A stretch of DNA of 64,000 bases, from positions 29,948 through 93,947 of the forward strand of contig CAKOMS010000001.1 in the NCBI GenBank assembly GCA_934096735.1, written 5' to 3'. Shown here piece by piece: positions 4,535 through 49,705 of this stretch. How positions within the stretch are numbered: the stretch's first letter is position 1; each line of letters starts with the position of its first letter. The DNA is from an uncultured Bacilli bacterium (GTDB lineage: Bacteria > Bacillota_I > Bacilli_A > RF39 > UBA660). The notes beneath the pieces were generated by a model, which saw only the letters and a program-made list of their open reading frames with translations, did not search any database and was not told the DNA's origin. The position numbers and the translations under genes were made by a program.

Positions 4535-6967
4535 ATGCATCATGAGAGAGATAGATTGCAAGAAAATGATATAGTAAATGAAATTGAAACTTCTTTTATT
4601 GAATATTCTATGAGTGTTATAGTATCACGTGCTTTACCAGATCTAAGAGATGGTTTAAAACCTGTTCATAGAAGAATATTATGGAGTATGTATGAGTCTG
4701 GTTATACGCCTGATAAGCCACATAAGAAGTCAGCTCGTATAGTTGGAGATGTTATGGGTAAATATCATCCACACGGCGATTCTAGTATATATGAAGCGAT
4801 GGTAAGAATGGCACAAGACTTTAACTATACTATTCCACTTATTGATGGACATGGTAATTTTGGTAATATAGCTGGTGCTCCAGCTGCTGCTATGAGATAT
4901 ACTGAATCTAGATTATCTAAGATATCATTGGAATTACTTAGAGATATTAACAAAGATACTGTTAATTTTGGACCTAATTTTGATGAATCTGAAAGAGAAC
5001 CTGAGATATTACCATCAAGATTTCCAAATATATTAGTAAATGGAACAATGGGAATTGCTGTTGGTATGGCAACAAATATTCCTCCACATAATTTAGGAGA
5101 AGTTATTGATGGTTGTGTAGCTTATATAGATAATCCAGAGATTGATACTTTAGGATTAATGCAATATATAAAAGGACCAGATTTTCCTACTGGAGGTACT
5201 ATTTTAGGAAATAGTGGTATTAAAAAAGCTTATGAAACTGGTCGAGGTAGTATTACTATAAGAAGTAAGGCTACCATTGAAGAAAAAGATGGAAGGCATT
5301 ATATCATTGTTAATGAGGTTCCTTATGGAGTTAATACCTCAGAACTTAAGACTAAGGTAGCTGAGCTTGTTCACAATAAAGTTATTGATGGAATAGCAGA
5401 TTATCACACTGATTTAAAAAATGGTGTAAAAATAACTATTACTTTAAAGAAAGATGCTAATCCACAAGTTGTTTTAAATAATTTGTATAAACACACTCAA
5501 TTTCAAACAAGTTATAGTATAATACTATTAATGATTGATAATAAAGTTCCTAGAACTTTAGGTTTGAAAGATATTATTTCTAAATACATTAATTATCAAG
5601 AAGAAGTAATTATCAGAAGAACGAAATTTGAACTTGATAAAGCACTTAAAAAGGTACATATTTTAGAAGGTTATAAGATAGCTTTAGATAATATTGATGA
5701 TTTTATAAAAATTATTAAAGAATCTGAAACAGATTTAATTGCAAAGCAACAATTAATTAATAAATATTCTTTAACTGAAATTCAAGCGGATAGTATCTTA
5801 GAATTAAAATTAAGAAGATTAACTGGTCTTGAAAGAAATAAAATTGAAGAAGAATTAAAGGATTTATTACAAAAAATTGAAGAATATAAGGCTATATTAG
5901 CATCTAGAGAAAGAATTTTAAGTATTATTAAAGAGGAATTACTTGAAATTAAAGCAAAATATGATGTAGATAGAAGAACTAATATAGATATGACAGCAAT
6001 AGAATATATTGAAGATGAGTCACTTATTCCTGAAGAGGATGCAATGGTAGTTCTAACAAATAAAGGATATATTAAGAGAACAACTAATGATACTTTTAAG
6101 GTACAAAATAGAGGTGGTGTTGGAGTTAAAGGTGTAACAACAAATGATGAAGATTTTGTTGAACATTTAATTAATTTATCAACTCATGACTATTTGATGT
6201 TCTTTACAAATAAAGGAAAAGTATATCGTTTAAAAGGTTATGAAGTTCCTGAGTTTAGTAGACATTCAAAGGGATTGCCAATAATTAATTTACTTCAAAT
6301 AGATAAAGATGAAAGAATTAATTCAATGGTTAAAGTTACTAAGGAAGAAAAGGCAAAATATTTATTATTTGCGACGAAGAAAGGTATTGTTAAGAAAACC
6401 TTAATACAAGAATTTGACAGTATTAGATCATCTGGAAAAATATGTATTAATCTTTCAGAAAATGATGAGCTTATTGATGTTAAGAAAACATATGGAGATA
6501 GTTTAGTTCTTCTTGGAAATACTAATGGAAGAATGGTTAAATTTAACGAAAATGAAATTAGACCAATGGGAAGAACTGCTACTGGTGTTAAAGGTATTAA
6601 TTTAGACGGTGGCAAATGTATTTGTTGCGAAGTTGTTTCTGAAGAATCAATGATATTACTTGTTACAGAAAAAGGTTATGGAAAAAGGACTAAAGTAAGT
6701 GAATTTAGACAAACAAAACGTGGTAGCAAAGGCGTTCTTGCTTTAAATATTACTAATAAAAATGGTTCTTTAGTTGCTTCTAAAATTGTTGAAGAAGATA
6801 AAAACGCTATTATAATGAGTAATTCTGGTATAACTATTAAATTACCAGTAGATCAAATTTCAATTTTAGGTAGAGTTACTCAAGGTTTAAGATTAATTAA
6901 CCTTAAAGATAATCAGATTGTGGCAACAGTAAGTATTGTTGAAAAAATTGAAAATATTGAAGAATAA
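4535..6967 (+). CDS. gyrA: DNA gyrase subunit A
   Basis: 810 aa; AAMRYTE active-site Tyr motif; C-terminal beta-pinwheel repeats. Confidence 0.97.
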
Positions 6968-6975
6968 TTTTAAAA

Positions 6976-7004
6976 AAATATTTCCCGGGAAATATTTTTT
7001 TTGT
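6976..7004 (+). terminator. Rho-independent terminator of gyrA (stem is the 22-bp palindrome AAATATTTCCCGGGAAATATTT followed by T8); doubles as NBS-like copy a
   Basis: Perfect palindrome immediately after the gyrA stop, followed by tttttttt. Confidence 0.75.
6980..6993. promoter_or_regulatory. Noc-binding-site consensus ATTTCCCGGGAAAT (NBS copy a)
   Basis: Exact 14-bp match to the B. subtilis NBS consensus; 1 of 4 CCCGGG palindromes in a 27% GC window. Confidence 0.55.
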
Positions 7005-7074
7005 GTAATATTGAGTTAAGCTATATATTTTTAATAATTAAAAAAAAATATATATAATTGTAATTGTTAGAATT

Positions 7075-7088
7075 ATTTCCCGGGAAAT
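7075..7088. promoter_or_regulatory. NBS consensus ATTTCCCGGGAAAT (copy b)
   Basis: Exact 14-bp palindrome; extended palindrome TATTTCCCGGGAAATA 7074-7089. Confidence 0.55.
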
Positions 7089-7146
7089 ATTTCCGGTACT
7101 CATAAGGTCCTTAATTTTTAGAATGTTCGTTTTTTGTTCGTGTAAT

Positions 7147-7160
7147 ATTTCCCGGGAAAT
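7147..7160. promoter_or_regulatory. NBS consensus ATTTCCCGGGAAAT (copy c)
   Basis: Exact 14-bp palindrome inside the 20-bp palindrome 7144-7163; flanked by the 8-bp inverted repeat tccggtac(7092-7099)/gtaccgga(7180-7187). Confidence 0.55.
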
Positions 7161-7263
7161 ATTGTCCGATAACTATAATGTACCGGATTAAAAACATAGT
7201 CGAGTTACTAATACATTTAGCTTGTAGTATATTTATCAATATGCTCTATTTTTTAAATTGTTG

Positions 7264-7281
7264 ATGTTTCACGTGAAACAT
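7264..7281. promoter_or_regulatory. parS centromere site (ParB/Spo0J binding), 18-bp palindrome ATGTTTCACGTGAAACAT, copy 1
   Basis: Core TGTTTCACGTGAAACA equals the consensus bacterial parS. Confidence 0.8.
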
Positions 7282-7456
7282 TATGTTGAAAACAATTAAT
7301 TTAGAATTTAATTATTCTACTGCTTTTGCTTTTCAGATTTTAATTGTTGGTTTTTTGTGAAGTTATTGTTATAGAATATACTATTTTTATAAAAAATAAT
7401 TTTTTATATATAATGGTTATTTATAATTTGATTAATTTTTTTTAATATTAGATTTT

Positions 7457-7474
7457 ATGTTTCACGTGAAACAT
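7457..7474. promoter_or_regulatory. parS site copy 2 (perfect)
   Basis: ATGTTTCACGTGAAACAT followed by TGTGTTGATAAC. Confidence 0.8.
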
Positions 7475-7681
7475 TGTGTTGATAACTTTTGAATTGATCT
7501 ATATAACAATTTATTTATATAATATTTTGTTCGTTAATATTTAGCTTATATTTTTGAAACAATATATTTATTATTATATAATATTAAATTAAAAATATAC
7601 ATCAAGTACTTTTTTTATTATTAAATTTACTTATATCATTAATTCAGGTTGATTATTTAGTTTTTTTATAAATTATTTTTA

Positions 7682-7699
7682 ATGTTTCACGTGAAACAT
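7682..7699. promoter_or_regulatory. parS site copy 3 (perfect)
   Basis: ATGTTTCACGTGAAACAT followed by ATGTTGAAAAC. Confidence 0.8.
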
Positions 7700-7795
7700 A
7701 TGTTGAAAACTATTTTATGAATAATAACAAAAATCATATTTTTATTATTATTGTATTTAATTTTAAATTTGTTTTTTATATTTTAATTTACTTCA

Positions 7796-7813
7796 ATGTT
7801 TCACGTGAAACAT
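7796..7813. promoter_or_regulatory. parS site copy 4 (perfect)
   Basis: ATGTTTCACGTGAAACAT followed by TGTTGATAAC. Confidence 0.8.
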
Positions 7814-7955
7814 TGTTGATAACTTTTGAATTGATTTTTAAATTTACTTATTTATTGTTATATATTGTTTTGTTTGTTAACATTTAGCTTTTCTTTTTTA
7901 GTTTTTTTATTTATAATGACCTATTATTATGCATTTTTTATTAAAAATAATTTTA

Positions 7956-7973
7956 ATGTTTCACGTGAAACAT
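7956..7973. promoter_or_regulatory. parS site copy 5 (perfect)
   Basis: ATGTTTCACGTGAAACAT followed by TGTGTTAATAAC. Confidence 0.8.
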
Positions 7974-8059
7974 TGTGTTAATAACTAATTTTTTAAAATT
8001 TTAAATTTTTCATTTCTAAATAAAGGTATTTGTCCGGTGTGTTATTTATTACCGGAAAT

Positions 8060-8073
8060 ATTTCCCGGGAAAT
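8060..8073. promoter_or_regulatory. NBS consensus ATTTCCCGGGAAAT (copy d)
   Basis: Exact 14-bp palindrome; flanked by the inverted repeat tgtccg(8031-8036)/cggaca(8098-8103). Confidence 0.55.
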
Positions 8074-8106
8074 AATTGTCCAGTGTTCTTTAAACAGCGG
8101 ACAGGT

Positions 8107-8124
8107 ATGTTTCACGTGTAACAT
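8107..8124. promoter_or_regulatory. parS site copy 6 (one mismatch: ATGTTTCACGTGtAACAT)
   Basis: Single A->T change breaks the dyad symmetry. Confidence 0.6.
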
Positions 8125-8146
8125 ATATAACTTATATTAAAAACGT

Positions 8147-8175
8147 TTGCTATAGTGTCAAAAATGTGATAATAT
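8147..8175 (+). promoter_or_regulatory. Sigma-A type promoter for the SRP RNA (-35 TTGCTA 8147-8152, 17-nt spacer, extended -10 TGaTAATAT 8167-8175)
   Basis: Hexamer match and spacing; transcript start predicted near 8182. Confidence 0.5.
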
Positions 8176-8181
8176 TTAGAT

Positions 8182-8262
8182 GCACAACAAATATATCGTA
8201 AACTGGTCAGATCAGGAATGAAGCAGCCACATCGGTCACTATTTGTGTGTGCTTTTTATTTT
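8182..8262 (+). ncRNA. ffs: Signal recognition particle RNA (small 4.5S-type SRP RNA, about 80 nt)
   Basis: cuGGUCAGAUCAGGAAUGAAGCAGCCac nearly identical to the conserved SRP RNA domain IV (E. coli GGUCAGGUCCGGAAGGAAGCAGCC) with a GGAA tetraloop; flanks can form a long imperfect hairpin (gcacaacaaatat.../...ctatttgtgtgtgc) ending in a T-run; tadA-scr-dnaX are also neighbours in B. subtilis. Confidence 0.6.
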
Positions 8263-8274
8263 ATGGAGAAATTT

Positions 8275-18099: not shown

Positions 18100-18308
18100 T
18101 ATACTTGTAGTTAACGAAGAATAAGTGTGGTAGATTAATAAGTTAAATAGAGAATTAGTGGTTGGTGGAAACTAATTAATAAGTTAATTGAGTATGAACT
18201 TAGGAGTTAAATCGGTGAGAATCGTTATAATCTAAAGTGTATGAATAAATTCATAAATTAAGGTGGTACCGCGGAAAATATTTCGTCCTTTGTTTATGAA
18301 TTTTTTAT
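18100..18308 (+). promoter_or_regulatory. T-box riboswitch leader, methionine-specific (specifier AUG-A at 18194-18197), with terminator/antiterminator
   Basis: Conserved T-box sequence AATTAAGGTGGTACCGCGG at 18256-18274; Stem I features AGAGA and distal loop GGTGGAAA; terminator helix aaattcataaat(18247-18258)/atttatgaattt(18292-18303) plus T-run; metG is downstream. Confidence 0.75.
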
Positions 18309-18320
18309 TTGGAGGTTTTT

Positions 18321-47601: not shown

Positions 47602-47943
47602 ATGGCATATAGAAAATTAGGTAGAGAAACAAGAATAAGAAGAAGCATTTTAGCAGGACTTACAAAAGATGTTATAATGCATGAATCTGTAGTAACTACT
47701 GAAGCAAGAGCTAAGGAAGTTAGAAAATTTGTTGATAAAATGATTACTTATGGTAAGAAAGGTACTTTAGTATCTCGTCGTAAAGCTTTAGCATTTTTAC
47801 ATAATGATAAAGATGTTACTAACAAAATTTTTAATGAACTTGCTAAAAGATATGAAAATCGTAATGGTGGATATACAAGAATTATTAAACTTGCAGAACG
47901 TCGTGGCGATGATGCTTTAGAAGTTAGAATTGAATTAGTTTAG
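47602..47943 (+). CDS. rplQ: 50S ribosomal protein L17
   Basis: Conserved sequence. Confidence 0.97.
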   Translation: MAYRKLGRETRIRRSILAGLTKDVIMHESVVTTEARAKEVRKFVDKMITYGKKGTLVSRRKALAFLHNDKDVTNKIFNELAKRYENRNGGYTRIIKLAERRGDDALEVRIELV

Positions 47944-47951
47944 AAAAATTG

Positions 47952-47981
47952 AGAAAGTTATAAAATACTTTCTTTTTTTAT
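47952..47981 (+). terminator. Rho-independent terminator after rplQ (gaaagt/actttc stem plus T-run)
   Basis: Hairpin plus ttttttt. Confidence 0.65.
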
Positions 47982-48042
47982 ACAATAAATTAATTATATA
48001 TGATAAAATAGTAAGTAGTGAAAATGTAGTTAGAGGTGTGTT

Positions 48043-48828
48043 ATGGCAAAAGTTATTTCATTAGTAAATCAAAAGGGTGGAGTTGGAAAGACTACAACAA
48101 GTATAAATTTAGCTGCTGCGTTAGGAAAAGAAAATAAAAGAGTTTTAATTATAGATTTAGATCCTCAAAGTAATGCAACAACTGGGCTTGGATTAAATTC
48201 AAATGATTTTAATCATGATATTTATGAAGTAGTTACTGGAGCTTGTGATATAGAACAAGCTATAAAAAAAACTAAATTTCAGAATTTAGCAATTATTCCT
48301 TCAACTTTAAATTTAGCAGGTGTAGATGTTGAATTTGTAAAAAGAATGTTAGAGGATAAAGATTTTAGACAAAATGATCAATTAAAGAATGCGATTAATA
48401 GAATTAGAGATGCATTTGATTATATTATTATTGATTGTCAACCTTCACTTGGACTTGGTACAATGAATGCATTAGTTGCAAGTGATTCGGTTATTATTCC
48501 TGTTCAATGTGAATTTTTTGCACTTGAAGGAATTACACAATTATTAAATTCAATTATAATGGTTCAATCTAGTATGAATCCTACTTTAAGAATTGAGGGT
48601 GTTTTACTTACTATGTTAGATGGTAGAACTAATATTGGACTTGAAGTAATTGAGGAAATTAGAAAATATTTTAAAGATAAAGTTTTTAATACAATTATCC
48701 CAAGACTTGTAAGACTTGTTGAAGCACCATCACATGGTAAACCAATTAATGAGTATGATCCTACTAGTCGTGCTACTGAAGCGTATCACAATTTAGCAAA
48801 GGAAGTGATTGAGAGAAATGGAAACTAA
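48043..48828 (+). CDS. parA: Chromosome partitioning ATPase ParA/Soj
   Basis: Deviant Walker A KGGVGKTT; 261 aa. Confidence 0.93.
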   Translation: MAKVISLVNQKGGVGKTTTSINLAAALGKENKRVLIIDLDPQSNATTGLGLNSNDFNHDIYEVVTGACDIEQAIKKTKFQNLAIIPSTLNLAGVDVEFVKRMLEDKDFRQNDQLKNAINRIRDAFDYIIIDCQPSLGLGTMNALVASDSVIIPVQCEFFALEGITQLLNSIIMVQSSMNPTLRIEGVLLTMLDGRTNIGLEVIEEIRKYFKDKVFNTIIPRLVRLVEAPSHGKPINEYDPTSRATEAYHNLAKEVIERNGN

Positions 48829-49705
48829 AAAGAAGGCTTTAGGTAAAGGATTAGAGCAATTATTTGCTAATAATGTTATTGATTTCGATAATTTTGAAAA
48901 AGAGATAGTAACTGAAGCAAAAAAAGATAATGGAATTGCTATGATTAGAATAGCTGATATTAGAAGTAATCCATATCAACCAAGAAAATCATTTAATGAA
49001 GATACTTTGAATGAACTTGCACAATCTATAAAAGAGTATGGACTTGTACAACCTATTATTGTTAAAAAGAGTATTAAAGGTTATGAGTTAGTAGCTGGCG
49101 AAAGAAGATGTAAAGCGTCTAGAATTGCCGGACTTACTGAAATACCTGCTATAATTAAAGATTTCACTGATGATGAAATGATGGAACTTGCTCTTATTGA
49201 AAATATACAAAGAGAAGATTTAAATTCTATTGATGAAGCTAAAAGTGTAATGAATATTATTAAACTTAAAGGTTATACTCAAGAAGAGTTTGCATTAAAA
49301 TTTGGTAAAAGTAGAACTTATGTTACTAATTTATTAGGTCTTTTAAATTTACCTAATGATGTACAGGAATTAGTTATTTTAAAAAAGATTAGTCCATCTC
49401 ATGCTAGATTGTTAAGTAAACTTGATGATCCTTTAGAAATTAATAGACTTGCTAATCGTATTATGTTAGAAAAACTAAATGTAAGAGATTTAGAAGATAT
49501 TGTTAATAATGTAGAGGTTGTTAAAAGAAAACCATTAGCTTATACTCATACTGATCCCAAATATCGTATTTATGAAAATGTAATTAGTGATAAAGTTGGT
49601 AATAAAGTTAAAGTTAAGAAAAATAAAATTGAAATTTCTTTTGATTCATTAAAAGATTTAGAAAGAATTATGGATATTTTGAATATATCTATTGGAGAAG
49701 ATTAA
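48809..49705 (+). CDS. parB: Chromosome partitioning protein ParB/Spo0J (CTPase, parS-binding)
   Basis: ParB box GERRCKAS, HTH GKSRTYVTNLL; overlaps parA by 20 nt. Confidence 0.93.
   Translation: MREMETKKKALGKGLEQLFANNVIDFDNFEKEIVTEAKKDNGIAMIRIADIRSNPYQPRKSFNEDTLNELAQSIKEYGLVQPIIVKKSIKGYELVAGERRCKASRIAGLTEIPAIIKDFTDDEMMELALIENIQREDLNSIDEAKSVMNIIKLKGYTQEEFALKFGKSRTYVTNLLGLLNLPNDVQELVILKKISPSHARLLSKLDDPLEINRLANRIMLEKLNVRDLEDIVNNVEVVKRKPLAYTHTDPKYRIYENVISDKVGNKVKVKKNKIEISFDSLKDLERIMDILNISIGED

Follow-up and report, generated by a model that had tools for sequence, protein, structure and literature searches.

Four Noc-binding sites (NBS) and six parS sites lie together in one short spacer of the 64,000-nucleotide stretch of DNA analyzed here (hereafter the window), which comes from an uncultured Bacilli bacterium (GCA_934096735.1, contig CAKOMS010000001.1, positions 29,948 to 93,947 of the forward strand). 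We consider it probable (roughly 0.72) that the four palindromes are genuine Noc-type sites and that, together with the six parS, they make up one composite origin-proximal island that would load two paralogous cytidine triphosphate (CTP)-gated clamps; the case is built from sequence comparison. Both ParB and Noc act as clamps gated by CTP: each nucleates on its 16-bp site and spreads from there (PMC8429893, PMC7053999). ParB is encoded in the window, and a Noc-like paralog is encoded on the other side of the replication origin (oriC).

Noc-binding sites around the parS array

The 14-mer ATTTCCCGGGAAAT occurs in the 64-kb window at positions 6980, 7075, 7147 and 8060 only, with no fifth match even when up to two mismatches are allowed. 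In dinucleotide shuffles of the window the match count averages 0.13, and four matches are reached in 0 of 100. The hexamer CCCGGG is confined to the same four places (shuffle mean 0.10), so an earlier note on this DNA was right that CCCGGG occurs just four times, each time within the 14-bp palindrome. All four copies extend to the complete 16-bp NBS TATTTCCCGGGAAATA (starts 6979, 7074, 7146 and 8059). The published NBS consensus is a 16-bp palindrome from which parS differs at two positions per half-site (PMC7383237); the four sites match it base for base, and the equation with the B. subtilis NBS made in that note therefore extends over all 16 bp.

The composite island occupies window positions 6968–8173, a 1.2-kb AT-rich spacer that runs from gyrA to the small signal recognition particle (SRP) RNA gene. 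Its sites, and the genes on its borders, are as follows:

6979..6994, no strand: NBS-1, exact TATTTCCCGGGAAATA; the gyrA stop lies 12 nucleotides before it, and A7 and T8 flank it
7074..7089, no strand: NBS-2, exact; an extra half-site ATTTCCGGTA follows it
7146..7161, no strand: NBS-3, exact
7265..7280, no strand: parS-1, perfect TGTTTCACGTGAAACA
7458..7473, no strand: parS-2, perfect
7683..7698, no strand: parS-3, perfect
7797..7812, no strand: parS-4, perfect; this unit is absent from strain L008
7957..7972, no strand: parS-5, perfect
8059..8074, no strand: NBS-4, exact; lies between parS-5 and parS-6, with TACCGGAAAT before it
8108..8123, no strand: parS-6, one mismatch (TGTTTCACGTGTAACA); directly 5′ of the SRP RNA gene
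4535..6967, plus strand: gyrA, the island's left border; the order gyrA–island–dnaX is kept across the clade
8174..8264, plus strand: small SRP RNA gene, the island's right border
7284-7292, 7477-7485, 7701-7709 and 7814-7822, plus strand: four DnaA-box-like motifs TGTTGAWAA, each 2–5 nucleotides past a parS

From left to right the sites read N-N-N-P-P-P-P-P-N-P (N, NBS; P, parS), and NBS therefore bracket the parS array here, without alternation. The earlier note had described the NBS as interleaved with parS, a wording that suits the alternating arrays of relatives (see below) and not the window itself.

The species is an uncultured human-gut bacterium; its further contigs derive from gut metagenomes, Hadza ones among them, and from an NCBI metagenome-assembled genome (MAG), GCA_964329735.1. 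Across four strain haplotypes every NBS, like every parS core, is invariant, and the substitutions fall in the spacers. The number of perfect parS is four, five or six in the window and strains L008, L009 and L010, with NBS always arranged as three plus one; island length ranges between strains from 1098 to 1467 bp, with parS-containing repeat units gained or lost. In 82 kb of same-species contig around oriC, we found no site within three mismatches of NBS elsewhere and no further parS with fewer than three mismatches, and the four NBS in this 82 kb all lie inside one 1.1-kb island.

The DNA around the NBS has features of its own. A perfect 28-nucleotide inverted repeat (7071-7098 / 8050-8077), made of an NBS and the half-site ATTTCCGGTA, surrounds the parS array; the TACCGGAAAT ahead of NBS-4 is the inverted partner of the NBS-2 flank. 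GC-rich TGTCCG…ACCGGA stems lie beside NBS-2, NBS-3 and NBS-4 (including 7163-7188), and the segment 8025-8110 folds at −26.8 kcal/mol (z = −3.3). Both the inverted repeat and the stems are kept between strains, and the nearest relatives have ATGTAAACCAAT and ATTGGTTTACAT as NBS flanks instead.

The island lies close to the origin. The window starts inside dnaN and continues with comK, recF, gyrB and gyrA; 3′ of the SRP RNA gene follow tadA, dnaX, ybaB and recR. GC skew is positive along the whole window and, on a longer same-species contig, flips at the rpmH|dnaA junction, which places oriC ~9 kb upstream of the island. We therefore rejected the idea that the island itself is oriC. The ComK-family gene (962-1411) between dnaN and recF occupies the same place in many related loci.

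The DnaA-box-like motif TGTTGAWAA (equivalent to TTWTCAACA) follows four of the five perfect parS at a distance of 2–5 nucleotides, and a variant lies at 7977. It also occurs twice in each oriC spacer, rpmH–dnaA and dnaA–dnaN (in L007 at 6981, 7047, 8653 and 8715), and 17 copies are observed in the window against 5.5 expected. Across the clade, a DnaA-like box lies within 20 nucleotides of 9% of parS, compared with 2.5% of random positions, and the link between parS and DnaA box is therefore lineage-specific. As a general composite element, parS plus DnaA box was rejected: it holds in this species and a few relatives. Elsewhere in the window, and unrelated to the NBS and parS, a T-box leader (18108-18293; 103 bits) lies upstream of an open reading frame at 18309.

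A Noc-like paralog across the origin

The genes for the ParB system lie well to the right of the island:

48043..48828, plus strand: parA, soj-type ATPase, directly after rplQ
48818..49705, plus strand: parB, Spo0J-type, predicted parS reader; N-terminal KKKALGKGLEQLF; specificity residues R-L-N-S

The 64-kb window contains no noc gene and parA directly follows rplQ, in keeping with the earlier observation that rplQ abuts parA with no noc adjacent. The parA–parB block (window 47602-49705, on to ~58162) continues with DUF951, ychF, rpsF-ssb-rpsR, rplI and dnaB, and the layout with parA–parB after rplQ recurs in GCA_017466775.1. In B. subtilis the corresponding block adjoins noc, on the other side of oriC; the parAB block has thus here moved away from rsmG–noc.

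At positions 173, 179, 184 and 201 (Caulobacter numbering) the window ParB carries R, L, N and S. The first three had been read correctly before, and S at 201, the equivalent of ParB residue S194, is added here. R173, the LGKGL-type N-terminal tail KKKALGKGLEQLF and the parA neighbor are all those of a ParB/Spo0J protein, with S201 as the exception. The best solved-structure match is Spo0J at 180 bits, with Noc at 149 bits, and the score on TIGR04285 is 224.3 bits. Within the clade, R173 is invariant in ParB, as are L179 and S201 (32 of 32 sequences); G201 has been reported as absolutely conserved in ParB (Jalal 2020; PMC7383237).

A second ParB-family gene, encoding a protein of 329 amino acids (P0002), lies directly after rsmG, 8.4 kb before the first base of the window. 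We located it by a look-up with the window's ComK, through contigs that reach 9 kb past the window start; the exact protein is on record on a 1.9-kb contig only. The gene lies across oriC from the island, ~15 kb away and on the opposite strand, where the order beyond oriC is rpmH-rnpA-yidC-jag-mnmE-mnmG-rsmG followed by the Noc-like gene, the classical noc position. The placement after rsmG holds for L007–L009 as well as for L219, which is a second species, and in the second-species assembly GCA_017466775.1 both paralogs lie on one 162-kb contig at the same two positions. The earlier note had offered a choice between a paralog encoded elsewhere and a ParB of dual specificity. Its first option is the one found, with a gene after rsmG that has Q173, K179 and R201; since this paralog is present and the window ParB keeps R173 and matches Spo0J best, the second is unnecessary. 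The same note had suggested a search for a second ParB-family gene encoding an N-terminal amphipathic helix: the gene exists, and the helix is absent from its product.

At the four specificity positions P0002 has Q-K-S-R. Q173, K179 and R201 are invariant in 35 homologs, and position 184 varies among S, T, A, N and Q. Jalal 2020 showed that Q173 reads A1 of the NBS and R201 reads C6, and that one K, at either 179 or 184, beside Q173 and R201 suffices for NBS specificity (PMC7383237). The two paralogs are 44% identical, and their specificity residues are mutually exclusive, R-L-(K/N)-S in ParB and Q-K-x-R in the Noc-like protein. The best solved-structure matches of P0002 are to Noc (191, 190 and 179 bits), with Spo0J at 171–173 bits. 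The protein further carries the marks expected of a Noc: ParB_N (PF02195) and HTH_ParB (PF17762) domains (precomputed Pfam for the gene and its homologs) with the CTP-binding motifs GERRYKA and VENxQR, both invariant in the 35 homologs; Q173 and R201 with a permissive K; and a gene downstream of rsmG near oriC. From these residues we predict that the window ParB reads parS and the Noc-like protein reads NBS. Annotators should be warned that the clade's Noc-like proteins are currently labeled only 'ParB/RepB/Spo0J family'.

P0002 is not a textbook Noc. It begins MNTESQILNVPIEDIIPNRFQPR, and its alignment to B. subtilis and Geobacillus Noc starts at residue 26–27. The GTG start has a ribosome-binding site ahead of it and an in-frame stop nine codons upstream, and 35 of 35 homologs are equally short at the N-terminus. 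The late alignment start, the upstream stop with its ribosome-binding site, and the short homologs together indicate that the 10-residue amphipathic membrane-targeting peptide is missing. In B. subtilis, Noc without this N-terminal peptide does not bind liposomes, and occlusion is impaired (PMC8429893).

Between the DNA-binding domain and the Noc-like C-terminal domain of P0002 lies an acidic, variable linker of roughly 85 amino acids with two invariant short motifs, PNKFFNFLEDExANM (residues 239-253) and EIEMLDF (residues 265-271); a Pfam search of the C-terminal third returned no matches. PNKFFNFLEDE is similar to SRFFGLGEKEQE, the peptide at the N-terminus of Noc (sequence confirmed in PDB 7OL9); with a helical moment of 0.53–0.67 and a mean hydrophobicity of ~0, the linker motif has the same values as the membrane peptide of Noc from B. 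subtilis and Geobacillus. We hypothesize that PNKFFNFLEDE is a candidate for a relocated membrane switch. The second motif, EIEMLDF, weakly resembles the invariant VIDFDNFE of the ParB N-terminal region (residues 20-27; BLAST E = 1.6), and the two may represent a shared short docking motif.

Co-clustering of NBS and parS in relatives

We scanned 185,579 species-representative genomes for ATTTCCCGGGAAAT-N5–35-TGTTYCACGTG and found at least 119 stretches with an NBS 5–35 bp from a parS. Among the matches listed, all are MAGs of uncultured low-GC Bacilli of RF39 type (GC 22–40%, nearly all 22–32%), and none is a cultivated Bacillus, Staphylococcus or Listeria. Labels among them include Mycoplasma sp., Mollicutes, Tenericutes, Ca. 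Scybalousia, Bacilli bacterium and Clostridium sp. CAG:710, CAG:1000 and CAG:417, and a few labels are evidently wrong. Wherever a listed stretch has recognizable genes, its NBS and parS occupy the gyrA–dnaX spacer. Within the order RF39, CAG-1000 ranks as a family (PMC7676259), and the assignment of the clade to RF39 rests on a few such named MAGs. Ten loci (L105, L106, L113, L131, L138, L147, L158, L165, L193 and L195) carry Muribaculaceae or Bacteroides helcogenes labels and have a Bacilli-type gyrA–island–dnaX locus of 25–37% GC, which points to mislabeled or contaminated public bins.

Many of the listed arrays alternate strictly: L176 has 13 NBS and 12 parS in 950 bp, and L155, L175 and L112 have 11, nine and eight of each, respectively. 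NBS and parS starts are as little as 25–26 bp apart, with gaps down to 10 bp. Spacing shows no clear 10.5-bp periodicity, and its peaks are repeats within arrays. In the relatives nearest to the window (GyrA 83–84% identical) the NBS stand as book-ends, NPPPPPN or NPPPPN. Relatives at 66–75% GyrA identity keep the order dnaN-comK-recF-gyrB-gyrA-island-dnaX with NBS beside parS; in one such relative, 21 kb contain seven perfect NBS. Metagenome contigs probed with DnaX gave 80 loci, mostly from distant taxa; the ~8 clade loci among them have the conserved island. Co-clustering of NBS and parS is therefore not peculiar to this genome; it is typical of the whole clade, in more than 100 species.

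NBS also occur outside the islands. In relatives, the variable dnaX linker holds perfect NBS in L018 (11066), L019 (11045) and L020 (11041) and one with a single mismatch in L023 (11140); the window's dnaX has none. The dnaX sites are read in two frames, as NYFPGNN in one and as NISREIN and IISQEII in the other, so that the DNA is conserved and the peptide is not, which argues for selection on the DNA itself. The relatives' flanks outside the islands contain 58 perfect NBS in ~795 kb (0.073 per kb), and dispersed sites thus exist in the clade.

Proposed function of the island and comparison with known systems

In the reading that we prefer, ParB would nucleate on parS and the Noc-like protein on NBS; both paralogs would load within the same 1.2 kb and then spread over the same origin-proximal DNA. 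Spreading from adjacent sites would give a mixed ParB/Noc nucleoprotein complex on the segregating origin region, and the most likely consequence would be a centromere carrying a division-inhibiting or membrane-tethering activity along with it. This Noc activity could be a membrane tether acting through the linker motif, or a contact with a division or replication partner, and any remaining membrane contact would come from the invariant amphipathic PNKFFNFLEDE. Separating origins would then repel division, an outcome like that of MipZ on ParB in Caulobacter. PMC6852036 reports that Spo0J and Noc cooperate in Z-ring placement in B. subtilis, which fits this reading.

Several observations weigh against it. 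By start-site check and alignment to Noc, P0002 has no N-terminal amphipathic membrane-targeting helix, and its score of 277.1 bits on TIGR04285 (nucleoid_noc) falls below the curated NCBIfam cut-off of 315. AlphaFold2 leaves the linker motif unstructured, with a predicted local distance difference test score of ~50. Over the 82 kb around oriC this species has no dispersed NBS, which sets it apart from classical nucleoid occlusion. Among the at least 119 stretches listed, all belong to one clade, to which the arrangement may be restricted.

A more far-reaching proposal, which we put forward tentatively as a possibility short of likely, is that an RF39-type clade of order rank, made up of uncultured gut Bacilli with small genomes, has a two-protein centromere. 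Alternating parS and NBS would serve as loading sites for ParB and for a permuted Noc, which would join in one complex; the membrane helix would have moved from the N-terminus to the linker, and the origin would carry a tether or division inhibitor in the manner of MipZ, reached through duplication of ParB.

The alternative that survives best, which we regard as unlikely though deserving of weight, accepts that the Noc-like protein binds NBS and assigns it a job other than division control or membrane tethering: its clamps would delimit or modulate the loading and spreading of ParB, or tune DnaA-dependent initiation. The missing membrane helix, the book-ends NPPPPPN and NPPPPN of the closest relatives, and the places where NBS and parS starts are just 25–26 bp apart all suit such a modulator, as do the DnaA-box-like motifs beside parS in this species and the finding that S. 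aureus Noc restrains replication initiation (PMC5540599). A pure centromere insulator, however, would have no need of the 58 perfect NBS dispersed over ~795 kb of relatives' flanks, and the conserved amphipathic linker motif suggests that a partner or membrane contact has been retained. The DnaA-box link is moreover not clade-wide, at 9% of parS against 2.5% of random positions.

That the window ParB alone reads both palindromes, through relaxed or dual specificity that would make the second paralog irrelevant, is highly improbable. The clade's S201 (32 sequences) departs from the G201 of Jalal 2020, and L179 is invariant as well, but R173 is invariant and neither Q nor R201, the residues of the NBS-reading switch, is present. 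A paralog with exactly these residues is encoded in the same genome, and the island keeps the two site types clearly apart as separate 16-mers, with none of intermediate sequence.

Least credible of all is a reading in which the CCCGGG palindromes serve no ParB-family protein and act as terminator hairpins, as targets of restriction-modification or as the operators of some unrelated regulator. In its favor, the hexamer is of SmaI/XmaI type, and the A7 and T8 flanks make a weak hairpin with a U-run possible at NBS-1, which after the gyrA stop folds as a 13-bp hairpin plus U8 (−8.5 kcal/mol), but the whole 16-mer, not the hexamer, is kept in more than 100 species, always beside parS, and NBS also occur inside genes in two reading frames. 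As terminators the sites are poorly supported, with hairpin and U-run combined at NBS-1 only: a terminator scan finds none in the island, NBS-2, NBS-3 and NBS-4 have no T-run and fold no better than shuffles, and in relatives the T-run precedes the NBS. Restriction-site avoidance was rejected, CCCGGG being enriched in the window and not depleted.

The textbook example of a duplicated DNA-binding protein that takes on another site and another job is the ParB–Noc pair. In known systems the two site types are described as spatially separate; here they stand side by side, in arrays of up to a dozen or so of each and in more than 100 species. The arrangement goes together with a Noc that lacks the N-terminal membrane peptide. 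The clade is thus a natural test bed for the cross-talk of two CTP-gated sliding clamps on shared DNA, for a Noc membrane switch operating from another position in the protein, and for the coupling of origin segregation to division in small-genome Firmicutes. A literature search found no paper combining RF39 with nucleoid occlusion, and a broader one, on sites for Noc or ParB in Tenericutes, Mollicutes or Erysipelotrichia, yielded no relevant paper; none of the papers found describes the mixed NBS–parS arrangement.

The closest known system is the Noc–NBS pair of B. subtilis and S. aureus. The 16-bp site is identical, and both have a ParB paralog with Q173, K179 and R201 (PMC7383237, PMC8429893), the GERRYKA and ENxQR motifs, a gene downstream of rsmG and a Noc-like C-terminal domain. 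P0002 differs in having neither the 10-residue N-terminal membrane helix nor helix α2, in its roughly 85-residue disordered linker with two invariant motifs, and in scoring below the TIGR04285 cut-off. The sites differ as well: in the clade they crowd at the parS centromere and interleave with it. B. subtilis has about 70 NBS, and sites of this kind are typically missing around the terminus. In the literature, parS are confined near oriC and NBS are widely distributed; in known Noc systems the NBS cover between half and two-thirds of the chromosome, on the side of the origin, with 41 in S. aureus (PMC5540599).

With chromosomal ParABS systems, the window shares a consensus parS cluster less than 10 kb from oriC and a ParB with the LGKGL tail, R173 and a ParA neighbor. 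It differs in that parS share their island with the sites of a paralog, ParB has S and not G at 201, and parAB have moved away from noc to a place after the ribosomal-protein and rpoA–rplQ cluster.

Two division regulators of other bacteria offer a more distant comparison. In Caulobacter crescentus, ParB recruits MipZ, an ATPase of ParA-like type, through protein–protein contact. If the island works as we propose, the logic would be the same, a division regulator riding on an origin-proximal centromere complex, but the recruit here would be a ParB paralog that binds DNA sites of its own beside parS, and the two proteins have no homology. SlmA of E. coli is a site-specific division antagonist of the TetR family whose sites (SlmA-binding sites, SBS) are absent from the terminus; it belongs to an unrelated family, and SBS are not clustered with the centromere. 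Against this background, the sites and the protein family found here are already known, and what is new is the composite, often alternating centromere together with the rearranged protein.

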